Shown here in pieces: positions 9,161 to 63,072 of a stretch of DNA of 64,000 nucleotides. The stretch covers positions 26,528 to 90,527 of the forward strand of contig JANLHP010000013.1 of the NCBI GenBank assembly GCA_024654445.1, given 5' to 3'. The first letter of the stretch is position 1; the number at the start of each line of letters is the position of its first letter. Source of the DNA: Candidatus Curtissbacteria bacterium (lineage in GTDB: Bacteria; Patescibacteriota; Microgenomatia; Curtissbacterales; GWA2-41-24). The translations under genes and the position numbers were made by a program. The notes under the pieces are model-generated. The model did no database searches and was not told the origin of the DNA. It worked only from the letters and a program-made list of their open reading frames with translations.

Positions 9161-10195
9161 TTATTTTTCCTTTAAAACATAATAGGTTGCCCGTCCACGA
9201 CCTTTTCTCTCAATTAACCCAAGCTCAATTAGTTTTTTAAAATCAAGCGCTCTTGTTGCTTTTGCACGGCTTGTGAGCTTTGCATAAGCCGGGTCGGCAA
9301 TAAAGCCTTTTTCGCGAATGTACTCAAGCATTTTAAGGTGGTATGGTTGCAGCTCATTATCAGGATTTACCGCAGACTGCGGAAGCATTTTCTGAACCCG
9401 CAAGAGTTCGTCAATAATCCCTTCTGTAAAATATTCAAGCCAATTAGTAAAGTCTTGCTTGTCAACAATCTCGTAATAATTACCAAATTCTCCAACCGTC
9501 TGAAAGTATCTTGTGACATTTTTGTTGTAATAGTTTTCAAAGCTAAAAAGATTAAACGTATTGAGTCCTAAAGCCGCCAGTAAAACTTTTGTAACAAGTC
9601 TGGTTGTTCTCCCGCTTCCATCCATAAACGGGTGAATTACAACCATTTGTTTATGAAATACACCAGCAAGAATTAGAGAGTCAATTACATTTATATTTTC
9701 ATTTATGAACTTGATTAAATCCTCAAGTAGCAACTCCACATCTTTGACATCAGGAGGAAGATATACCGTCTGTCTTGTTCTTGAATCATTTACAACAACT
9801 GCTTTTTCTCTAAGCTGCCCTGACTCAAAAGACGGAAGCAAGCCTGCTGTTATTTGTTTTTGAATGTTAAGAATGAGACTTATAGATATTTCTATCGTTC
9901 CTTCGGCAAGCTTTCTGTTTAGGTCTTGCAGCGCTTGATTGTAATTTAATACTTCGCGCTCACTGTCCCGAATATGGGAAGGTTTTGATTTAAGAATCTT
10001 TTTGACCTCTGTTAGTGGTAACGGATTTCCCTCAATGCTTGTTGAAGCATAACTTGAGACTTCACGCGCACTTCTCTCAAGTTCAAGAAGTACTACGTTT
10101 GAGAAATGTTTATTATTGAGATTGGAAACTAAAGAGTCAATTCTTTTGATGTTTGCTAAAAGCTTGTCTGTGATCGTATATCGAGGCTGAAACAT
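9161..10195 (-). CDS. Fic-family protein (AMPylase-type; N-terminal inhibitory motif, C-terminal wHTH)
   Basis: Fic active-site motif HPFMDGSGRTTRL. Inhibitory-helix motif STSIEGN ([ST]xxxE[GN]). C-terminal winged-helix-like KGRGRATYYVLK. Confidence 0.85.
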   Translation of the reverse strand: MFQPRYTITDKLLANIKRIDSLVSNLNNKHFSNVVLLELERSAREVSSYASTSIEGNPLPLTEVKKILKSKPSHIRDSEREVLNYNQALQDLNRKLAEGTIEISISLILNIQKQITAGLLPSFESGQLREKAVVVNDSRTRQTVYLPPDVKDVELLLEDLIKFINENINVIDSLILAGVFHKQMVVIHPFMDGSGRTTRLVTKVLLAALGLNTFNLFSFENYYNKNVTRYFQTVGEFGNYYEIVDKQDFTNWLEYFTEGIIDELLRVQKMLPQSAVNPDNELQPYHLKMLEYIREKGFIADPAYAKLTSRAKATRALDFKKLIELGLIERKGRGRATYYVLKEK

Positions 10196-14273: not shown

Positions 14274-14353
14274 GATGAATAACGAATTAAGAATTATGAA
14301 TTAAGGTTTCAAACCATAATTCATAATTCAAGATTATACGCTACAATGGAATC

Positions 14354-15139: not shown

Positions 15140-15997
15140 ATGCAAAATCTTGAAGGTTCAGAGAATCTGTCTTTGTCTGAGGATGGTGAAAAGAGAAAAA
15201 TAGCAGAAGGTGGGATGTTAGCGGCGCATTTCGTTAGAAAAGTGTCAATGGGGAGAAAGGTGGATGGCAGGAGATACGGTTTTGATGGTGATTACGTAAG
15301 GGCAATTAATAAAAGGGTGGCCGCCGGTGCTGACTGGGGAGGTCGGCTTAGGGAGGAGAATTTAGGTATAGATGAATTTGATGCCGTAAGCTGGCATGAG
15401 GTGCCGACAAGATTTTATTTGTATTCTAACTGGTTGGACACTCAGATGAGAGAGGTTACATCCAACCCTGATGATATTGTTCTTGCTCTCGAGACTGCTG
15501 CAGCTGCACATTACGGGCTTACTCAACCAGAGCTCCATCCTTTTGCGTTTGGAAATGGTAGAACTGCAAGGGCTTTGGTCAATGGAATTTTAATGACCTG
15601 TGCTGATGAGCTTAGGCTCTACAAAATAGCTCTCCCTCCAATTCCAATTCTTCGAGATTACAATGAGGATCGAGATCGGAGATATATAAAAGCCTTAAGG
15701 TCTGTCAGGGAAACTGGAACACTTAATCCCTTAATGACTGTTTTGGCCAACAGATGGTCTCAAAATTTAGGAGAACTTTTGGAAAGAATCCACAAGGAGC
15801 TTGGGATTCCTAAAAATCCAGCTGATAAAAGAATGATCGAAACCTTGGAGAGGAGAAAAGATAGGCTCGATGAATTTGCTGGTCATTCCGAAAGCTCGAA
15901 TAAAAATGTACAAAAAAAAATGAAGAATGGTTATCATCAGTACTGGGTTCCCAATTACTTTGATCCGGTTTGGATGAAGGGTGGTAGTGGCAATTAA
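15140..15997 (+). CDS. Fic-domain protein
   Basis: Fic motif HPFAFGNGRTARALVN. N-terminal KIAEGG is inhibitory-motif-like. The 3' end overlaps the cysS start by 17 nt. Confidence 0.8.
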   Translation: MQNLEGSENLSLSEDGEKRKIAEGGMLAAHFVRKVSMGRKVDGRRYGFDGDYVRAINKRVAAGADWGGRLREENLGIDEFDAVSWHEVPTRFYLYSNWLDTQMREVTSNPDDIVLALETAAAAHYGLTQPELHPFAFGNGRTARALVNGILMTCADELRLYKIALPPIPILRDYNEDRDRRYIKALRSVRETGTLNPLMTVLANRWSQNLGELLERIHKELGIPKNPADKRMIETLERRKDRLDEFAGHSESSNKNVQKKMKNGYHQYWVPNYFDPVWMKGGSGN

Positions 15998-37999: not shown

Positions 38000-39049
38000 A
38001 TGCGTATTTTTGTTGCTGCCATTATTACTCTTGTTGTCTTGATATCGGGTTTCGTTCTTTATTCTAGAGTTGATCGTTCAGCTGGTGATATTACTGTTCT
38101 TCTGACAGACGAGTTAAACACCGATGACAATATGGGGGAGGCAGAAGTCGGGCTGCACGAGCTTTCGATAGAAGGACTGAGAGGCGGCGAGTATCCAGGA
38201 AGTGACATTACGATTGAGCAGGCGCTTGACCCGGGTTCTAACTATCAGCGATACATTGCTTCTTATAGATCGGAAGGTTTGAAAATTTACGCCCTTTTGG
38301 CAATCCCAAACGGGCCGAAACCTCGAGGGGGATATCCTACAATTATTTTTAATCACGGATATATTCCACCAGCTCAATACAGAACGACGGAACGATATGT
38401 TGCGTACGTGGATGGGTTTGCAAGAAATGGATACATAGTTTTTAGGTCCGATTACCGAGGACATGGAAATTCTGAAGGTAGCCCTTCAGGAGCGTATGGG
38501 TCGAATGACTACACGATAGATGTATTAAATGCGGTTGCATCTCTTAAAAAGCACCCAGATGTAGACGAGAGCAAAATCGGTATGTGGGGACATAGCATGG
38601 GAGGGCATATTACTCTCAGGAATATGGTTGCAAAGAGTGATGTTAAAGCGGGAGTTATATGGGCGGGTGTTGTAGCTTCTTATCCGGATCTTATAAACAG
38701 GTGGAGAAGGGGGAACAGGCCGTCTCCAACACCACTGCCCGGTGGTGCGAGAAGGTGGAGACAACTACTCGTGGAACAATATGGTGAGCCGGAAAAAAAT
38801 CCGCAGTTCTGGAATTCAATTTCTGCCAACTCATACCTTGCCGATATTTCAGGCCCGATACAGCTTCATCACGGTACACATGATACTTCTGTACCAGTTG
38901 AATTTTCGCAAAAACTGGACGAGCAATTAAAAGCGGTGGGCACAGTGTCGGAACTAAACGTATATCAAGGAGACGATCATAATTTAAGCGCTAACTTTAA
39001 CACTGCTATGCAAAGATCTATTGAGTTTTTCGACCGATACCTGAAGTAG
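38000..39049 (+). CDS. membrane-anchored alpha/beta hydrolase (S9/dienelactone-hydrolase-like), paralog A
   Basis: N-terminal TM, nucleophile elbow GHSMGG, catalytic Asp/His region DDHN. Confidence 0.75.
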   Translation: MRIFVAAIITLVVLISGFVLYSRVDRSAGDITVLLTDELNTDDNMGEAEVGLHELSIEGLRGGEYPGSDITIEQALDPGSNYQRYIASYRSEGLKIYALLAIPNGPKPRGGYPTIIFNHGYIPPAQYRTTERYVAYVDGFARNGYIVFRSDYRGHGNSEGSPSGAYGSNDYTIDVLNAVASLKKHPDVDESKIGMWGHSMGGHITLRNMVAKSDVKAGVIWAGVVASYPDLINRWRRGNRPSPTPLPGGARRWRQLLVEQYGEPEKNPQFWNSISANSYLADISGPIQLHHGTHDTSVPVEFSQKLDEQLKAVGTVSELNVYQGDDHNLSANFNTAMQRSIEFFDRYLK

Positions 39050-39098
39050 AGTAAAAGGGGATAGAGTTTAGGGTTAAGAATTGGATAGCGTTCAAGGT

Positions 39099-39167
39099 GA
39101 GATCCTTGTCATTCAGTGCCATGCGGTCCTCGTCCTTCGGACTGCGGACCTAAGGGGTCTCACTTGG
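39099..39167. repeat. structured repeat (copy R3): CAAGG-TGAGAT-CCTTG hairpin plus a GTCC-TTCG-GGAC (UUCG tetraloop) module
   Basis: Shares CAGTGCCATRCGGTCCTCGTCCYTCG with the ychF-internal copy. Contains the reverse complement of ATCTCACCTTG. Confidence 0.5.
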
Positions 39168-39174
39168 GCTTAAT

Positions 39175-40278
39175 CTAAAGGGAGTTTAATGCTTCCTGGG
39201 CTTCTTGAAGGTTTCTATTGTAGATTACTGCTTTTTCGAACTCTTGTCGAGCGAGTTCTAGGTTTCCTTGCTTCTTATAAATTTCCCCACGAATAAGATA
39301 AAGCTCGGAAAAGGCTCTGTTGTGATTATTAAGAACCTTGTCCGTTATGGCGAACACTCTCGGGTAATTTCCCAATTCGTAGTACGCTCGTATTGGTTCG
39401 ATTTGGTACCAAAGAGTTCTGAAAGGGAGCTGATTTTCGACTTCTTCAAACTCGCGGACCGATTCTTGGTAGTCGCCGGTGTTGTAGAGCGCGACTGAAA
39501 GGTTGAAACGAGAATAGATGTCGCTCGGGTTGTTCACAAGTTCATTTTGCGAGAGCTCTGCCGCTTTTCTCCAAGCAACTTGCTCGTCCGAGTTCTCACC
39601 AAGAATCGCTTTGGCTATATGCTCTTTTTCGGGTGGTACAAGAACGAGATATTCGTAGTTAAATTTTTTCCAAACGGCGTTAAAGTCACTATACGAATAG
39701 CGTAAATTTTTGCCCTGCAAGGAATCGTCTTGGATGATCTGTCCTGTTGTTTCGTCGTAACCTTTAATAATTCTGTAATGGCCAATGTCGTCGTCTACTT
39801 TAAGCAAGGTTCTTGCAATGACGGGAATGTCATAAGTAATAAAAAGTTTTACTTCCTCCATACTCCCAGTTGGGCGATGATACGGAATAAGTTCGTAGTC
39901 CTTTGATTTTTCTCCCAACTCTTCGAGGGTTACGGATTTGTCGTCGTTATCTCCCTGGGGATTTTGGTAGGGTCTAAGTTCTTGACCCAAGGTTTGTTGG
40001 CTAACGTTTATTCCGTAGTAAGAAAGAGCCATCGAAAGAGCTGCCGGGCCGCAATTATTGAAGGTTTGAAAAACGTGATAGTCATTTGCAAGTATTTTCT
40101 GAGCGGGTGGGTTTTCCAGCGTGAGTTTTGGGGAGGGGGAAGGTCCCGTTAGTTGACGTTGTTCTTGAGATAAATTGTCCGTTGAGGTGTTGTCTGACCA
40201 GCGATCAAATGCAGCCAGGCTGCCGATTGTCACAATAATTAAAAAAACGATTATAAATACAAGCTTAAACATAAGCAT
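39175..40278 (-). CDS. secreted C39-like papain-fold peptidase domain protein with C-terminal TPR repeats
   Basis: Signal/TM, motif FNNCGPAALSMALSYYG, C-terminal TPR-like repeats. Confidence 0.65.
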   Translation of the reverse strand: MLMFKLVFIIVFLIIVTIGSLAAFDRWSDNTSTDNLSQEQRQLTGPSPSPKLTLENPPAQKILANDYHVFQTFNNCGPAALSMALSYYGINVSQQTLGQELRPYQNPQGDNDDKSVTLEELGEKSKDYELIPYHRPTGSMEEVKLFITYDIPVIARTLLKVDDDIGHYRIIKGYDETTGQIIQDDSLQGKNLRYSYSDFNAVWKKFNYEYLVLVPPEKEHIAKAILGENSDEQVAWRKAAELSQNELVNNPSDIYSRFNLSVALYNTGDYQESVREFEEVENQLPFRTLWYQIEPIRAYYELGNYPRVFAITDKVLNNHNRAFSELYLIRGEIYKKQGNLELARQEFEKAVIYNRNLQEAQEALNSL

Positions 40279-40339
40279 ATTTTACCACTCCGATTTGACA
40301 TGGTATTTTTCACAAAGGTAGAATTATGTTTACCGCCAA

Positions 40340-41998
40340 ATGCAAAACATTGCTCTGGGAGCTTTTGTTTTAGTAGTTTTCTACAATCTCCTTTTCTATA
40401 AAATCCCTCTTGGGCTAGGAGTAGGTTTTTGGTTTTTAATTCTCAATCTTTTTTTTATTGCAACGGCGAAAGTTGATTCCCGACGAATTTTAACTGGTGT
40501 TGGCTTTTCTGCTGCTTCTGTATTGTTCGCCTTTTTATTCTCATTAAGATCTAATTTTCTTGTTCAAGTCGTAGATTTAGTTTTGGCGGTTCTTTTTACT
40601 ACTGCTGCCATTTATGCTTACAGGTCACAAAAAGAGCCAAGATTTGAGCTTCCTTATTTTCTTACCTTGCCATTAAAACTCGTTGGCAACTCAATTTTTT
40701 ACTTTGGTAGCAATCTTAAAAATTCGGAGTTTTCTTCCAGTAAAATTTCTGCGGGAAAAGTTTCATATATAGCCCGTGGAATTCTTATTTCGGCTCCCAT
40801 ACTTGCAGTTCTTTTTATATTGCTTTCGGTAGGAGATCCAATCTTTGGTCGAGTTGCCCAACTTTTTTTCAAAGATATAGGCTTAAGGCTTTTAATTTCG
40901 GTCACCATTTTTGCAGCGTTTGTCGCTTTAGGGATTGTTAGAGCCGAAAAACCGGATGACAGAGAAGACACGCAAAAGGTGGTAAGTTCAAAAGCTTACG
41001 AACTATCGACGATAGTGGGTGGTATAGTTTTTCTTTTTGCGATTTTTATTGGGGTGCAGTTTAGGTATTTATTTACCGGAGTGGGGGAAAGAGAACTACA
41101 TAATTTAGGTATACAAAGCTTAACTTATTCGGAATACGTGAGGAAGGGGTTCTTCGAACTTATAGCGGCCTCTGTTCTTGCAAGCAGCGTTGTTTTATAT
41201 GTTTTGCGCTTTATTCACAAATTTCACGCTAAAGAGAAGATATGGGTTCAGGGGTTAACAGGCACGTTAATATTTGAAATAGGTCTAGTTCTACTGTCGG
41301 ATTTTCAGCGTTTGAATTTATATCAGGCGACGCATGGTTTAACTAGGGCACGTGTTTTTGGGTTTGTTTTTTTGGTCTGGCTTTTAGCGATGCTTTTGAT
41401 TTTGGTTTGGCGTGTGTTTGTTAAAACTGAAAGCCAGAGGATTTTTATCGCCACACTTTCTGTCAGTCTAGTGACTGTTTTGACGATAAATATTGCCAAC
41501 ATTGATAGCTTGATTGCAAACGATTTCAAACCAACGGTCAATAGTGAAATAGACTATTCTTACATCGCTTCTCTATCTACTGACGCAGCTGGTAGCTGGC
41601 CCGAAATAATCCGTGAAAGCGAAAAAATCTTGGATGAAGTTGCGGTGACTCCGGAAGATATTAAGCCGGACGAAAATAGGAAATTAACGCTCACGTATCT
41701 TGCACTTAATCGTCTTGATACGAAAATTGCTTTTTTGATTTCTAAATATGGGTCAAATGATTTGTATTACGATTGGACCGGTGGTGGAAATTTAAGGGAT
41801 TTTAATTCGCGCAAGTGGCACTCGTTTAACTTTAGTCAGTATTTGGCGTTTAAGAAGATAGAAGGTAACTATGAGGATTACAAAAAGGTTAAACATTTAA
41901 TCGCAAGAACCTCGGCGCTGCAATCTAGCGTCAAGCCGGAAGTGCAAAAAGACACACAGTTAGATCGCCCAATTGAACCACCTCTTGTTACAGATTAA
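40340..41998 (+). CDS. polytopic membrane protein with C-terminal soluble domain
   Basis: About 10 TM segments, 552 aa. Confidence 0.6.
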   Translation: MQNIALGAFVLVVFYNLLFYKIPLGLGVGFWFLILNLFFIATAKVDSRRILTGVGFSAASVLFAFLFSLRSNFLVQVVDLVLAVLFTTAAIYAYRSQKEPRFELPYFLTLPLKLVGNSIFYFGSNLKNSEFSSSKISAGKVSYIARGILISAPILAVLFILLSVGDPIFGRVAQLFFKDIGLRLLISVTIFAAFVALGIVRAEKPDDREDTQKVVSSKAYELSTIVGGIVFLFAIFIGVQFRYLFTGVGERELHNLGIQSLTYSEYVRKGFFELIAASVLASSVVLYVLRFIHKFHAKEKIWVQGLTGTLIFEIGLVLLSDFQRLNLYQATHGLTRARVFGFVFLVWLLAMLLILVWRVFVKTESQRIFIATLSVSLVTVLTINIANIDSLIANDFKPTVNSEIDYSYIASLSTDAAGSWPEIIRESEKILDEVAVTPEDIKPDENRKLTLTYLALNRLDTKIAFLISKYGSNDLYYDWTGGGNLRDFNSRKWHSFNFSQYLAFKKIEGNYEDYKKVKHLIARTSALQSSVKPEVQKDTQLDRPIEPPLVTD

Positions 41999-44408: not shown

Positions 44409-45020
44409 TTAATTGCTGTAACTTTCGCAGGCGGCTTTTGCTTGTGGGTCTGTTATCTGAGCGCACATTGAGTTGGAAGTGCCGGGGCTTGCAGTAGCGG
44501 GGCTTTGAGTCTGCTCTTGAGTTTGTGTTAAGTCCATGAATTGTACGTCAGACGGTGGGGTGAACTTGGAATTGTCTGGCGACCAGGAAGAACATTTCAT
44601 ATCGACTTCTTTGTTTACATCGAAATCCTGGTTTTGATCTTGTGTCTGCTCAGTCGCCGCGCTGTTTTTAATTTTTACTCCTTGACCCATTACTGGTGTC
44701 CATGTATATGTGTACTCGCTGTCGTTGATCATAGAACTGTGCATCTCCGTTCCGTTCGGGTCTGTCATGGTAAAGTCGCCTCTTACTTTATTACCAGAAA
44801 CATAAATAGTACCTTCTGTTGACTGGCCGGGATATTTAACAGTGCAGGTTTGGTTTTTGCCAAAAAGTCCGGCTATTGTTCCTTTAACTTGTGTTTGGGC
44901 TTCAGGTGACCCGGGTGTAGTGGTTTCTGTCGATTTGCCTCTATTAAAAACAAATGCTCCGATTCCTATTACTGCAACAAGTGCTATTGCGCCGGCAGCA
45001 ATTTGAAGATTTCTTGACAT
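44409..45020 (-). CDS. membrane-anchored extracytoplasmic protein
   Basis: N-terminal TM. Thr/Gln-rich, with C-terminal Cys pairs. Confidence 0.5.
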   Translation of the reverse strand: MSRNLQIAAGAIALVAVIGIGAFVFNRGKSTETTTPGSPEAQTQVKGTIAGLFGKNQTCTVKYPGQSTEGTIYVSGNKVRGDFTMTDPNGTEMHSSMINDSEYTYTWTPVMGQGVKIKNSAATEQTQDQNQDFDVNKEVDMKCSSWSPDNSKFTPPSDVQFMDLTQTQEQTQSPATASPGTSNSMCAQITDPQAKAACESYSN

Positions 45021-45031
45021 TTCTTTTTGAG

Positions 45032-45060
45032 AGTATATTCCTCTGTGTTAATTTTGTCAA
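45032..45060 (-). promoter_or_regulatory. sigma70-like promoter for gene 44409-45020 (TTGACA-17 nt-TATACT)
   Basis: On the minus strand, TTGACA (45060-45055), a 17-nt spacer, then TATACT (45037-45032). The ATG at 45020 lies 11 nt downstream of the -10. Confidence 0.5.
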
Positions 45061-45175
45061 AATTTAAGGTATGACACCTCTTCGAGTCTGAGCTTGAAAG
45101 CTCATCCCTCAGAGTCGAATGACTTTCGATGACTCAAGGTTGCCACCTTAAATCACGAAGAATCTCACCTTGACT
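45053..45175. repeat. palindromic repeat element R4 (~87-bp imperfect palindrome bounded by TTTAAGGT/ACCTTAAA), followed by the ATCTCACCTTGAC motif
   Basis: Core 45064-45150 is the reverse complement of core 45830-45915. Flanks TTAATTTTGTCAARATTTAAGGT are in the same orientation at both loci. Confidence 0.65.
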
Positions 45176-45812
45176 TAACTTTTTTGACTTGCCAAATTAG
45201 TGCAGTGAGCGGAAGAGAGAGAAGAATTAATATCCATATCAAGTAGGAAAGGTCGATTCCGAAAGGCGCCCACTTTTGGATATCCAGGTTCTGCGCAATG
45301 TCGTAAACTCTCCACGGCGGTTTTTTTAGAACATGCATAAAGTACTCCCTTAATATCGAAGGTATTAAAAGGGCTACTATAATAATGAAGACACTTATTC
45401 TAGATGTAAAAAGTTTCTGCTTTTTGGTTAGGCGCACAAACAGCAGGTAAAAGATAAAAAAGTTTTCAAAAAAATTGGGAAAGAATATAAGCAAACTTCT
45501 ATTGCCAATTAGCGGAAACAGAATAGCTCCTGTAAGTCTGTACAAAAATGAAGATACAGCGATTTTTCTTGCTAATTGGTCCTTCCATGATAGGGAGGTG
45601 AATGCGGCAATGGCAAGATAATAAATATCGAAGATCTTGTCCCACAATTGGTATGCTTCACGCTCTCCGTTGTTTGCAAAAGGCAGGAAATTAAAATCAT
45701 AAACATCTATAAAGATAGATGCAAACAATCCAAAAAGCGGCCATTTTAAAATAGAGAATCCGGCTACGAGGCGAATAATAGAGAGAACGATATATGTTTC
45801 CAGAAGAGACAT
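45165..45812 (-). CDS. polytopic membrane protein bracketed by repeats R4 and R5
   Basis: 215 aa, about 6 TM segments. Its stop codon lies within the ATCTCACCTT motif. Confidence 0.55.
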   Translation of the reverse strand: MSLLETYIVLSIIRLVAGFSILKWPLFGLFASIFIDVYDFNFLPFANNGEREAYQLWDKIFDIYYLAIAAFTSLSWKDQLARKIAVSSFLYRLTGAILFPLIGNRSLLIFFPNFFENFFIFYLLFVRLTKKQKLFTSRISVFIIIVALLIPSILREYFMHVLKKPPWRVYDIAQNLDIQKWAPFGIDLSYLIWILILLSLPLTALIWQVKKVKSR

Positions 45813-45815
45813 TTT

Positions 45816-45965
45816 AATTTTGTCAAGATTTAAGGTGGCAACCTTGAGTCCTCGAAAGTCGTTCGACTCTGAGGGGTGAGCTTTTAAGCTCAGACTCGAA
45901 GAGGTGCCCTACCTTAAATCATAATGTTCAAGGATGAGACCTTAACAAGGATCTCACCTTAACTT
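45816..45965. repeat. palindromic repeat element R5 (core inverted relative to R4), plus a tandem duplication of the CAAGGATSWSACCTTAAC module
   Basis: See R4. 45925-45964 holds two tandem copies of about 18 bp ending in ATCTCACCTTAAC. Confidence 0.65.
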
Positions 45966-46529
45966 TAATTTAAGAATTTGTTTGAGTTGACCTTCAATTG
46001 CTGGATCGTTTATTGGCCCAAAACTAATTAAAGCGTTATCTCCGTTTCTGATTTCTCTTTGCAAAAAGTTATCTACTTTCTCTTCGTTAACGTAAAACTT
46101 GAGTGATTTTGTAGTAGATTCACAAAAATTTTGACCTGTGCCAGTTACTAAGCAGCCATAATCGACGTACATGGGTAGGGTTGCGAAGAACTCGCCCCAT
46201 GTAGTATTTGGCTTTTTAACCACGACGTGGTTGGGGTTTGATGCTTCTATGTAAACATCAGGAGAAACGTTGTGGTATTTTTTGGTTGTAAATTCTCTCT
46301 CTGTGCCTTCTGTAAAGATCAAAAACGACGCTTTTGTATCAGCATTGACCTGTGTAGTTGTAGGGGTCGGGCTTGATGTTGTGGTAAGCGGCAACTTTTT
46401 GTCGCAGGCGGAAAGCACAAAAGGGCTGATCAAAATCAATGCTAATACTCTAAAGCTGTACACGTATTCAGAATAACATTTCCTGTTTGATTTGTGGTGA
46501 ACGCAGCGGTTTGTATATAATCTGCACAC
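45954..46529 (-). CDS. putative lipoprotein (true start probably GTG near 46463)
   Basis: Lipobox FVLSAC after a hydrophobic stretch. The ORF-track start at 46529 abuts the divergent SPFH start, leaving no promoter space. Confidence 0.5.
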   Translation of the reverse strand: MCRLYTNRCVHHKSNRKCYSEYVYSFRVLALILISPFVLSACDKKLPLTTTSSPTPTTTQVNADTKASFLIFTEGTEREFTTKKYHNVSPDVYIEASNPNHVVVKKPNTTWGEFFATLPMYVDYGCLVTGTGQNFCESTTKSLKFYVNEEKVDNFLQREIRNGDNALISFGPINDPAIEGQLKQILKLKLR

Positions 46530-47804: not shown

Positions 47805-48854
47805 ATGATATCGCGCCGGATTTTCATTATTATCACTATTGCCGTCGTCGGAGCCGCTGGAGCTCTCGTTATTATAAGGAGAGATGGGACGGAATTAGTT
47901 CGATCGATTTTGCCGGATGTTCCTGGAGCAGTTAATCCCACGCCAAGCCCCTTTCCTTTTCAGGAATTGACGATTCCGTATCTGAAAAGCAGAAAATATG
48001 ACAGTAATTTAGGAAGTCTGGAAAGGGTAAGTGAGAACGCAAACTATATTTCATATTTAACAAGTTATGAGTCTGATGGTCTAAGGATTAATGCTCAGTT
48101 AACGGAACCTAAGGGTCCAAGACCTGAGGGAGGTTGGCCAGCGGTTATCTTTATTCATGGCTACATTCCTCCAGGGCAGTATCAAACGCTCACGAATTAT
48201 TCATCTTACGTTGACTATCTTTCCAAAAACGGGCTTGCGGTTTTTAAGATAGATCTTAGGGGACACGCAAATTCGGAAGGAGAACCAGGTGGGGCCTATT
48301 ATTCTTCGGATTACGTAATTGATGCCCTGAACGCTTATTCTGCTTTGCAGAAAGCGCAGTTTGTTAATCCTGACAAAATTGGTTTGTGGGGACACAGTAT
48401 GGCGGGCAACGTGGTCTTTAGGAGTTTAGCCGCAAAACCGGAAATTCCGGCGGTCGTGATTTGGGCGGGTGCGGGATACACATATTCGGATATCCGGGAG
48501 TTCGGAATTGACGATGACAGTTACCGGCCTCCGCCAAGCGATACGGAGAGGCAAAGAAGAAGAAGGGAGCTATTTGATACTTACGGAGATTTTAACGCCG
48601 AGAGTTCTTTTTGGGAGCAGGTTGCACCGACCAATTATTTGGGGGAGATGAAAGGGGCTGTACAGCTTAACCACGCGACGAACGACAACGTTGTCAGTGT
48701 TCGATATAGCCGGAATCTGACAAATCTTCTTAAGGATGCCGGAGTTCGTCACGAATTGCACGAGTACGGTGGTGGTGGGCACAATTTTTCCGGTGCTTCA
48801 TTTAATGCTGCTATGCAGAATACAGTTACTTTTTTCCAAGAGAACCTTCGGTAA
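47805..48854 (+). CDS. membrane-anchored alpha/beta hydrolase, paralog B of 38000-39049
   Basis: Same architecture and clear sequence similarity to paralog A. Nucleophile elbow GHSMAGN. Confidence 0.75.
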   Translation: MISRRIFIIITIAVVGAAGALVIIRRDGTELVRSILPDVPGAVNPTPSPFPFQELTIPYLKSRKYDSNLGSLERVSENANYISYLTSYESDGLRINAQLTEPKGPRPEGGWPAVIFIHGYIPPGQYQTLTNYSSYVDYLSKNGLAVFKIDLRGHANSEGEPGGAYYSSDYVIDALNAYSALQKAQFVNPDKIGLWGHSMAGNVVFRSLAAKPEIPAVVIWAGAGYTYSDIREFGIDDDSYRPPPSDTERQRRRRELFDTYGDFNAESSFWEQVAPTNYLGEMKGAVQLNHATNDNVVSVRYSRNLTNLLKDAGVRHELHEYGGGGHNFSGASFNAAMQNTVTFFQENLR

Positions 48855-48993
48855 TCTCTTAATAATTTCTTACAAACCTCTAACCTCAATCTAAAAATTT
48901 TGATCTAGAATACGCACAATCGGTAATTGTGCTTTTGAATATTCTCACCTTGATTTTTTGGATCATCGGTCAGAGTAACTAAGCAAAAAGGAG

Positions 48994-49283
48994 GTGATAG
49001 ATAGTTGGTGGACATTAGTAATCATTATAGACATTACTTATGAACGATATTGGAAGGACGCTTATTATTTTTGGATTTTTAATCTCATAGGAATTTTGGT
49101 GAGTGTTTCAGGCAAAATCCCATTAATTGGCCGATTGCCTGGAGACATTATTATAAAAGGGAAGGTTTTACATTTTATTTTCCGTTAACAACCTCGCTAA
49201 TCCTCAGTATAGTTTGTCCCTCGTTCTTAGATTTTTTAATAGATAGATTACGTTCAGCATATGTTCGCAACACGCAGATATGA
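48994..49283 (+). pseudogene. DUF2905-like small membrane protein with an apparent frameshift at the A-run near 49160-49166
   Basis: Frame 0 gives ...GKIPLIGRLPGDIIIK then stops. The +2 frame continues with (E)GFTFYFPLTTSLILSIV..., matching the second conserved half of the family. Confidence 0.5.
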
Positions 49284-49780
49284 GTCGCGAATTTTTGGAA
49301 GTGATACGAGACGTAGAAGCACTTGCAAGTGAACCTCAAGGTTTTGGCTTTGAAGGGGAATGGAGTAGCCGTTTGCAGCCGGTTCTGGTGCAAAATCAGC
49401 CGGGTGAGAGGCTACACAGCCATAAAGAAAGGACAATGGCCATTCCTCGCAGGCCAACGCGCGGCCGGATTTATCATGCCGGTTCAGGCAACAGCGGCCA
49501 TTTTTGGAGAAAAAAAGTGGGAACTTTTTGCGATTGATACTGGATACCAACTCGTTGCAGTTCTTGCGATGGGTGTTGTTCTAGCTATCTTATGGCAGGT
49601 GAAGAGGGACATTGGTTTGCAAATGCTGATCCTAAAACACCGGGAAAAACAGGAGATCGAGCTTTCTTTATTGATGAAACAGGTGTGATCCGCGCGACAG
49701 AAGGCGGAGAAGCAACTCCTGGCAGTAAACCCCTCGAGAACTAAGTATCTTCTTTTTGTTAAACTATTTCTTATGAATTT

Positions 49781-50287: not shown

Positions 50288-51496
50288 ATGAACCTATCTG
50301 TCGGTATTGTTGGACTACCCAACGTGGGGAAAAGCACGCTTTTTAATGCGCTTTTAAAGAAGCAGGTGGCTGACGCGCAGAATTATCCGTTTACGACGAT
50401 TGAACCAAACGTCGGCGTTGTTGAAGTTCCAGACCCACGTCTTTTCAAACTTGCAGACGTGGTAAAGAGCAGTGAGGGTTTAGCTCCGAATTTTAAGATA
50501 ATTCCAGCGGTTGTTAAGTTTGTAGATATTGCTGGTCTTGTTAAAGGTGCAGCAAGCGGCGAAGGATTAGGGAATCAATTTTTGTCGCATATTCGTGAGG
50601 TTGACGCGATTGTTTTTGTGTTGAGGGATTTTAGTGGAGAAGTTATTCGGGTGGGAAGTGAGAATCCCCAGGAAGATCTTGAGGTTCTAAAAACTGAACT
50701 TTTGATTAAGGATCTTGAGACTATTGATAAGCGAATTGATAGTTTAGGTAGGGAGTTGAAACCTCTTGGGCACCAAGATCCTAAGCATCAAGTTTTGGTG
50801 ACGATGCAAAAAGCGAAACAACTTGCTGAAGAGGGGAAGTGGCTGGGAGAAAATATGGACGAGGAAGAACTGGCGAAAATCCGTGAATTGCAGCTGCTTT
50901 CGACGAAGAAAACAATTGTTGTATTAAACACAGATGAGGGTAATCTCTCTGTTATTGCGAGTGAATCGAAGCAATCTCCAGATTCTGGATATACAGTGCC
51001 ATACGGTCCTCGTCCCTCGAGGACTCAGGACTCCGGGCCTAAAAGCCAGGATGACAAAAAAGAGATTGCCGCGGGCTCTTCGAGCCCTCGCAATGACAAT
51101 TATGTAAGGATAAGCGCGAAACTAGAACAGGAACTTTCGGACCTTGATGAGGAAGAGCAGGGAGAATACCTAAAAGAGCTTGGGATTGGCGAACCCGGAT
51201 TAAATCGTTTAATTAAAAATGCGTATGAAACTTTGGGGCTTATTACTTTTTTTACTGCCGGGCCAAAAGAAGTGCATGCGTGGACGACAAATAAAGGCGT
51301 ACTTGCACCGCAAGCTGCAGGAGTAATTCATACGGATTTTGAAAAAGGATTTATTGCTGCAGAAGTTATAGATTGGGAAACTTTAGTTGATGTGGGTGGA
51401 TGGCAGGCGGCAAAAGGGAAGGGACAAGTTAAGACTATCGGAAAGACAGAAGAAGTAAAGGATGGAATGGTTGTGGAGTTCAGGTTCAGTAACTAA
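50288..51496 (+). CDS. ychF: ribosome-binding ATPase YchF (Obg-family GTPase) carrying a 49-aa internal insertion
   Basis: G1 [17 protein letters not shown] domain at the C-terminus. 402 aa, versus about 363 for canonical YchF. Confidence 0.9.
50951..51097. repeat. composite structured repeat inserted in frame (147 bp) within ychF: R1-type outer/inner inverted repeats enclosing an R3-type module
   Basis: GTTATTGCGAG...GCAATCT...[CAGTGCCATACGGTCCTCGTCCCTCGAGGAC...]...AGATTGC...CTCGCAATGAC. Compare copy R1 at 3059-3137 and copy R3 at 39099-39167. Confidence 0.6.
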
Positions 51497-62753: not shown

Positions 62754-63072
62754 GGGTCAGACCTCTCTTTGAGTTCGCGGGAGTTTTGATCTTTTTCATC
62801 CCAAATCTTAAGGATGTTTTCAGTAGGAACGTGAAGGTTCCTCATCGCATTGACCCAAAGAAAAGTAGATTCTAATCTCCCAACTAACTGCTGCTGATAC
62901 AAATTGACTCTCGTGCTTTCTTCTTCGATCCTTCGCGAGAATTCACCTTCAACGTCAAATTTTCCTGCTTCTGTCATATTTTGTTATTTTTATTGTTCAA
63001 GATTTTGCTTTGTGCCGTGGGAGAGATAAACCGTTTTTGCTATCGCAAAAAAAGCGAACTCTCAATTTTGTG

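Follow-up and report, generated by a model that had tools for sequence, protein, structure and literature searches.

In a 64-kb window of a Candidatus Curtissbacteria metagenome-assembled genome (the window being the whole stretch of 64,000 nt that was analysed), we describe two copies of a palindromic repeat, copy A and copy B, which lie in the spacers before and behind a gene for a polytopic membrane protein (gene 2) and whose cores run in opposite orientations between flanks that run in the same orientation. We assign the pair to the palindromic intergenic repeats, a broad class with REP/BIME/REPIN- and Correia-like forms, as a member specific to this genome; most likely it is an ordinary repeat of the repetitive extragenic palindrome (REP) or miniature inverted-repeat transposable element (MITE) kind, duplicated locally and constituting no new regulatory device. 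As to its history, we put at about an even chance the account in which a 135-nt intergenic unit was duplicated locally and the interior of the hairpin then flipped in one of the copies. Copy counts and motif counts refer to the window throughout, ~95% of the genome lying outside it.

The inverted arms (45062-45154 and 45827-45919) were found by repeat search to be 93 nt long and complementary at 87 of 93 positions (94%), with mismatches at arm positions 11, 13, 35, 44, 59 and 69, and they form the sole inverted repeat of at least 30 nt in the entire window. An earlier sequence-only reading of this DNA had called the cores reverse complements over 45064-45150 and 45830-45915; the alignment bears this out over slightly wider arms, and it also agrees with that reading in placing the flanks in the same orientation at both loci. 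On the left, the direct repeat TTAATTTTGTCAAR+ATTTAAGGT (45048-45070 and 45814-45836) is identical at 22 of 23 positions, and its pattern was matched twice or more in 0 of 100 shuffled sequences; the first part of it, the left (L) module TTAATTTTGTCAA, is identical at 13/13 positions between copies (45048-45060 and 45814-45826). On the right, direct flanks of 25 nt (45158-45182 and 45947-45971) are 84% identical. Between the flanks, the terminal inverted repeats ATTTAAGGT and ACCTTAAAT pair over 9 bp in copy A and 10 bp in copy B, and the flipped interior is the 73 nt that they enclose. Beyond these repeats both flanks are direct, so that the repeats mark the exact limits of the flipped segment. 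An assembly artefact was ruled out, as the copies differ at 6 of 93 positions, so that the words they share exactly do not reach the length of usual assembly k-mers.

Copy A, a unit of 135 nt on the minus strand (45048-45182), lies between gene 2 and gene 1 and reads in minus-strand order as the gene-2 tail with a motif that we call T1, the 93-nt palindrome and the L module. Its core (45062-45154), an imperfect palindrome, carries ATTTAAGGT at 45062-45070 and ACCTTAAAT at 45146-45154, and each of its ends is a mini-hairpin of the form AAGGT-N4/5-ACCT. The L module of this copy (45048-45061, TTAATTTTGTCAAA) reads TTGACAAAATTAA on the minus strand and gives a −35 hexamer, and the right (R) flank (45158-45182, minus strand) holds T1, here CAAGGTGAGATTCTT (45158-45172), together with the 3′ end of the gene 2 reading frame, AAG TCA AGG TGA (final codons and stop). 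Copy B, a unit of 158 nt on the minus strand (45814-45971) between gene 3 and gene 2, has the same frame with the core flipped: its core (45827-45919) is the reverse complement of core A (87/93) and the better palindrome of the two, its L module (45814-45826, TTAATTTTGTCAA) again reads TTGACAAAATTAA on the minus strand, followed by a single A and the gene 2 ATG, and its R flank (45947-45971, minus strand) holds T1, here TAAGGTGAGATCCTT (45947-45961), together with the end of gene 3 including its stop codon, AAG TTA AGG TGA. The minus-strand frame common to both copies is therefore ...AAG TYA AGG TGA (the stop of the upstream gene) GATYCTT ... TGATTTAAGGT, then 73 nt in either orientation, then ACCTTAAAT and YTTGACAAAATTAA.

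The copies differ in length due to the gap between core and right flank, which is 2 nt in copy A and 25 nt (45922-45946) in copy B, i.e. 23 nt more. Reading this extra segment directly from the sequence (minus strand), we found a second mini-hairpin, GTTAAGGTCTCATCCTT, that nearly repeats T1 but carries the centre TGAGA in inverted form, as TCTCA, and that pairs with the T1 of copy B into a hairpin of ~11 bp directly after the gene 3 stop codon; thus TTAAGGTGAGATCCTTG is followed at once by TTAAGGTCTCATCCTTG, its direct copy with an inverted centre. The right flank of copy B also reaches into gene 3, the product of which ends in ...QLKQILKLKLR*, and the LKLKLR tail, encoded by this flank (45954-45971), is not seen in the family. 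Among 11 aligned homologues, 7 keep QLxQ and end 2-5 residues after it, five of them reading ...QIPxx, and the other four stop earlier. The point at which gene 3 abandons the family pattern (...QLxQIPxx) coincides exactly with the start of the repeat. Because the extra tail is encoded by the right flank, gene 3 owes its altered C-terminus to the repeat.

Several of these features favour one duplication followed by one flip. The two copies are only 766 bp apart, and no third copy of the core or of the L module was found in the window by mismatch pattern search, blastn-short or a covariance model, which is what a single duplication and flip would leave. Two separate insertions would require that a target of ~40 nt (L module and T1) had first been duplicated and was then hit twice at the same position. 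Copy-to-copy divergence is similar in the core (6/93) and in the flanks (1/14 and 2/15), consistent with one date of duplication for all parts. Moreover, the repeat boundary cuts between the −35 and the −10 of gene 1, and the −10, which lies outside the repeat, is unique to copy A, as expected of a copied native spacer. The departure of the gene 3 C-terminus from its family at the repeat start likewise fits a copy of a gene-2 tail plus spacer that became fused to gene 3, and the mini-hairpin of copy B, a direct copy with an inverted centre, has the footprint of a template switch. Inversion of the spacer or loop between short inverted repeats by template switching is documented (PMC8794818; PMC8604942). 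What these two sources describe resembles our locus in that a spacer is reverse-complemented between fixed flanks and hairpins are made more perfect, as in copy B with its better palindrome and its mini-hairpin with an inverted centre (PMC8794818; PMC8604942).

In our model, the ancestral unit on the minus strand would have consisted of the last ~6 codons and stop of a gene, overlapping T1 (YAAGGTGAGATYCTT), the 93-nt palindrome and TTGACAAAATTAA. A tandem copy of ~766 bp, comprising gene 2 and its downstream spacer, would then have been made and the upstream copy of the gene would largely have disappeared; alternatively, a Campbell-type event would have led to the same arrangement. Subsequently, the interior between the terminal inverted repeats would have flipped in one copy, by a replication template switch across the hairpin or by intra-hairpin recombination, and the 23-nt mini-hairpin of copy B may have arisen in the same manner. 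Four observations weigh against this history. T1 is dispersed to the unlinked position 39093 and a related palindrome lies inside ychF (see below), and the dispersal of at least some modules favours mobility over a purely local duplication. Reported loop inversions span mostly a few nt (typically ~4 nt), compared with the flip of 73 nt between 9-10 bp repeats that would be needed here. The proposed order, duplication and then flip, is suggested by two paralogues rather than by an ancestor–descendant pair. Finally, the hairpins have no U tract, which leaves a terminator role for them without support.

The dispersed modules were traced from T1. The motif (YAAGGTGAGATYCTT) occurs exactly at a third place in the window, 39093-39107 on the plus strand, and with up to two mismatches allowed four occurrences were found (three of them exact) against 0.6 expected by chance. 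At this third place it forms the left arm of a hairpin of ~80 nt (39090-39170, plus strand) between the convergent genes 38000-39049 and 39175-40278, with GGGGTCTCACTTGG as the right arm; copy A shares 20 of 23 nt, and copy B 19 of 20 nt, with an arm of this 39.1-kb hairpin. T1 also resembles the core-end mini-hairpin TTAAGGTGGCAACCTTG. All intergenic AAGG-N4-9-CCTT mini-hairpins of the window fall within copy A, copy B or the 39.1-kb locus, and the T1 motif or AAGGT..ACCTT units are found at these three loci only in 64 kb. The centre of the 39.1-kb hairpin is in turn homologous to 50979-51031 (42 of 52 positions identical), which is part of a palindrome of 149 nt (50950-51098) with a predicted folding free energy of −60 kcal/mol (z −5.0) that lies in frame inside the ychF GTPase open reading frame (ORF; 50288-51496, plus strand). 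At this palindrome the YchF protein (402 aa) has a stretch of 40 residues in place of the 12 of E. coli YchF, and the insert peptide gave 0 matches against 1.84 billion representative proteins. The palindrome resembles the Rickettsia palindromic elements (RPEs) that are inserted in coding genes. Because T1 recurs at a third hairpin and the centre of this hairpin is homologous to the ychF palindrome, the genome, on this comparison of sequences, carries mosaic palindromic repeats, among which the focal pair is the most similar pair. Two further observations concern small hairpins of the window. A T1-like word with two mismatches, CAAGGTGAGAATATT (48938-48952, minus strand), stands in the spacer 48855-49322 beside a GCACAAT-TACCG-ATTGTGC hairpin and may be a fourth, degraded family member; and a near-perfect hairpin of 19 bp with a 1-nt loop, GAATTATGAATTAAGGTTT / AAACCATAATTCATAATTC (14291-14329), in the spacer after recR, contains TTAAGGT and may serve as a terminator or represent a further small palindromic element.

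The dispersal of T1 and the ychF palindrome speak for the first competing explanation, in which the 93-nt core is a non-autonomous mobile element of REPIN/MITE type, mobilised in trans by a transposase encoded elsewhere and inserted twice in opposite orientations beside T1-type motifs, or in which the whole T1-core-L unit is mobile. Over 105 aligned columns the core shares 72 with its own reverse complement, and its ends are TTTAAGGT-N4/5-ACCT..GAGTC mini-hairpins that are inverted relative to each other; hence the core forms an inverted doublet of short palindromic units, the architecture of a REPIN (PMC3116915, PMC3337134). T1, moreover, is an arm of another hairpin at the third locus, and the related palindrome in frame in ychF points to movement of palindromic DNA within this genome. 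On the other side, only two copies are found in 64 kb and they are adjacent, and no transposase, recombinase, integrase or RAYT/Y1_Tnp was detected in a Pfam scan of 35 ORFs that included every ORF within ±10 kb of the repeat pair. No target-site duplication abuts the 93-nt core or the 135/158-nt unit (readings of TTAA or AT are inseparable from the inverted repeat), and the flanks are identical and direct, so that the target itself would have been duplicated beforehand.

Searches of larger collections also gave no sign of a dispersed family. A 19-mer gave 4 matches in 185,579 species genomes, where ~4 are expected by chance, all in unrelated taxa and without the second 12-nt core word; metagenome contigs gave 0 matches to a 24-mer and 0 to a gapped pattern of L flank and terminal repeat followed by terminal repeat; three patterns gave 0 matches in viral contigs; and blastn against phages and plasmids gave no match. 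Nor did the covariance model, which was derived from the two cores, pick up additional matches when run over the window and 8 loci from relatives. Exact look-ups of proteins encoded in the window found none on record. A highly conserved SPFH neighbour has no homologue above 82% identity, and therefore there is no sister genome on record. Weighing both sides, we consider insertion of a mobile element possible but doubtful, and a mobile REPIN-like explanation keeps substantial weight. A wider version of it, that the locus is the visible piece of an active REPIN- or RPE-like family of hairpin DNA whose AAGGT/ACCTT modules (T1, the 93-nt doublet and the centre shared by the 39.1-kb hairpin and ychF) are shuffled, flipped and inserted in frame into an essential GTPase gene, seems to us rather unlikely. 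Of the two origins that the sequence-only reading had offered, inversion of a palindromic core fits the direct flanks, and insertion of a MITE is weakened by the missing target-site duplication and the lack of any further copy in the window or in the collections searched; both remain the leading candidates.

The pair may be compared with known families. REP, BIME and REPIN sequences are likewise short imperfect palindromes that are extragenic and located at gene 3′ ends, occur singly, as inverted doublets folding into a longer hairpin and as mosaics that include further short motifs, and vary in orientation (PMC3116915, PMC3337134). A genome has tens to hundreds of them; they are linked to a RAYT transposase and are thought to act as 3′ hairpins of RNA (PMC3116915, PMC3337134). 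Our case differs in its three loci in 64 kb, in the lack of a RAYT among the 35 ORFs, in the absence of sequence similarity, and in its host, a bacterium of the candidate phyla radiation (CPR) instead of Enterobacteria or Pseudomonas. RAYT genes, which encode Y1 HUH transposases, are single-copy and have REPs on their flanks. The Correia/NEMIS elements of Neisseria are MITEs of ~100-150 bp with terminal repeats of ~26 bp, a TA target duplication and hundreds of copies. They share with our pair the intergenic position, terminal inverted repeats, an mRNA hairpin and ends that can supply promoter hexamers to an adjacent gene; here, however, the terminal repeats are 9-10 bp, there is no target duplication, there are two copies, and the −35 is in the flank outside the invertible part.

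To such a hexamer the sequence-only reading had attached a promoter, and for copy A this part of it holds. Upstream of gene 1, on the minus strand, TTGACA (45060-45055) and TATACT (45037-45032) are separated by a spacer of 17 nt (45032-45060), a match of 11/12 to the consensus. At a threshold of at least 11/12 for the TTGACA/−10 consensus, there are two promoter-like sites in the window, and shuffled sequences give about 3. Each of these two real sites is followed by a start codon after 11-15 nt (45060 before the ATG at 45020, and 40295 before the ATG at 40340), and thus a gene 1 promoter with a very short leader is plausible. The second site (40295-40324, plus strand, TTGACA-18-TAGAAT) is 15 nt upstream of the start of a DUF4153 gene at 40340 and suggests that promoters of sigma-70 type with very short leaders may occur in this genome. 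In copy B, TTGACA ends about 8 nt before the gene 2 ATG, being followed by AAATTAA-A-ATG, and has no −10. Because there is no space for a −10 here, the repeat itself is not a promoter module. On the duplication account, the L module would provide the −35 half of the gene 1 promoter in copy A, and copy B is presumably a dead, duplicated half-promoter.

Thus, the further suggestion that each unit is a terminator fused to a promoter could not be upheld, given that copy B lacks a −10 and that of copy A falls outside the repeat. Its terminator part, in both directions, fared no better: a scan of both strands for intrinsic terminators reported none at copy A or copy B, the stem is rich in A/U at its base, and on neither strand is a G+C-rich stem followed by a T run, the tails being AUUUUG in copy A and AUCUUG in copy B. 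For annotation, this means that copy A alone has a plausible promoter and that neither copy resembles a canonical terminator.

The predicted folds point instead to a long branched hairpin. Copy A gave −28 kcal/mol on the plus strand (z −2.9) and −36 kcal/mol on the minus strand (z −4.1), and copy B about −40 kcal/mol on both strands, with z-scores from −2.9 to −6.4 over both copies and strands. By these predictions, a stable RNA hairpin would certainly form at each copy, and no strand or orientation is consistently favoured. None of the six substitutions between the cores (0/6) is compensatory. Rfam 15 was scanned over the whole window at the gathering threshold, without a relevant match, and over 44900-46100, 38950-39300 and 50880-51160 at E up to 10, where only chance matches far below threshold appeared, none of them on the cores. 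The absence of a favoured strand, of compensatory changes and of an Rfam match argues for a DNA-level palindrome or a generic hairpin rather than an oriented functional RNA. Two smaller candidates were rejected: motifs like a hammerhead core in the three-way junction were absent by eye, in agreement with Rfam, and a small ORF of 13 aa inside core A is not conserved in copy B.

We suppose that the core, in either orientation, would form a stem-loop in the polycistronic minus-strand RNA after the stop codon, where it could protect the 3′ end or weakly attenuate transcription. Since the stem-loop would form either way, orientation of the core is probably neutral, and its role, judged from the modelled folds, is likely that of an orientation-independent RNA or DNA hairpin after stop codons.

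The next alternative concerns gene 2 itself, which the sequence-only reading had regarded as bracketed like a cassette. In this explanation, gene 2 and one element would be a mobile cassette, integrated by recombination with a resident element in an integron/attC-like or Campbell-type manner that left the site duplicated in direct orientation. An integron attC site is an imperfect palindrome of ~60-140 nt right after a tightly packed ORF that has no promoter of its own, with R''/R' core sites (RYYYAAC ... GTTRRRY), an unpaired spacer, extrahelical bases and an intI gene in the vicinity; consecutive ORFs have similar sites on either side. Direct flanks do bracket a single tightly packed ORF here, the gene 2 ATG standing 1 nt after the L module of copy B and the gene 2 stop lying inside the R flank of copy A; homologues of gene 2 are found in unrelated contexts in other Microgenomates; and GTTAAGG in the R flank agrees with GTTRRRY at 6 of 7 positions. 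The core sites, however, are unlike RYYYAAC/GTTRRRY, as the ends TTTAAGG/CCTTAAA mismatch GTTRRRY/RYYYAAC at 2 of 7 positions each and stand in reversed order relative to the ORFs, and the stem runs on through 10 bp where an unpaired spacer would be usual. The Pfam scan detected no integrase within ±10 kb or in any of its 35 ORFs, there are two sites only, one of them flipped, and the cassette leaves the flipped core unexplained. Moreover, at the loci of gene 2 and gene 3 homologues in other Microgenomates we found no synteny and no bracketing repeats, contrary to the idea of a cassette. We therefore regard this explanation as improbable.

Both core orientations in one genome, between unchanged flanks, could also indicate an active invertible switch, in which either the 73-bp core flips or the 766-bp gene-2 segment flips between the 93-nt arms, altering expression of gene 2, gene 1 or the two-component genes downstream. 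Inverted repeats of 93 nt and 94% identity around a gene are indeed a substrate for inversion, and a histidine kinase and a response regulator follow downstream on the same strand. But no recombinase is found nearby (±10 kb), no orientation-dependent promoter was seen inside the core by eye or listed by the consensus scan, an interior of 73 bp is short for inversion by a protein, and the six differences between the cores, whose two orientations are seen only at two different loci, mark them as diverged paralogues and not as two states of one element; a switch is thus quite improbable. Very improbable, and weakly refuted, is that the core is a structured RNA (ribozyme, riboswitch or small RNA) working in one orientation, for which the stable branched predicted fold with z down to −6.4 and the need for G-U pairs in the hairpin of one orientation might speak, since Rfam gave no match at E up to 10, the covariance model found no homologue elsewhere, the copies are opposite relative to transcription, no strand is consistently better and compensatory changes are absent.

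If local duplication followed by a flip is the true history, the locus would be a natural example of how a palindromic spacer evolves, being duplicated with a gene, flipped in its interior and supplemented with small hairpins, with the function of the locus unchanged. If instead a mobile family is the truth, CPR bacteria, with genomes of ~1 Mb and few known repeats, would maintain selfish palindromes of the REPIN or RPE kind, one of them tolerated inside ychF. This would bear on the evolution of CPR genomes, and an active family of such hairpin DNA in an ultra-small CPR genome would imply an undescribed system of single-strand hairpin transposition or template switching in Patescibacteria.

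The surrounding genes form a series on the minus strand, gene 3, gene 2 and gene 1, followed by a GAF histidine kinase and a receiver protein. Gene 1 (44409-45020, minus strand) encodes a protein with one N-terminal membrane anchor. Gene 2 (45165-45812, minus strand) encodes a polytopic membrane protein of 215 aa with at least five hydrophobic segments, 100% identical to the hypothetical protein NUV69_01470; it has no Pfam match and belongs to a Microgenomates-restricted family, with 29 homologues, all in Microgenomates, at 57% identity and below. Both ORFs, taken as genes in the sequence-only reading and the second of them as polytopic, are real. Gene 3 (45954-46433, minus strand) encodes a secreted or lipoprotein-like protein, of 159 aa with the NCBI start.

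Some further features of the window are recorded here. Two paralogous genes for secreted alpha/beta-hydrolases (S9/S33-like, 349 aa each; 38000-39049 and 47805-48854, both on the plus strand) lie ~10 kb apart and flank the focal locus. A tRNA/tmRNA scan of the window gave a single match, tRNA-Leu at 63072, and two Fic/DOC-domain proteins are encoded <6 kb apart, at 9161-10195 on the minus strand and at 15140-15997 on the plus strand.

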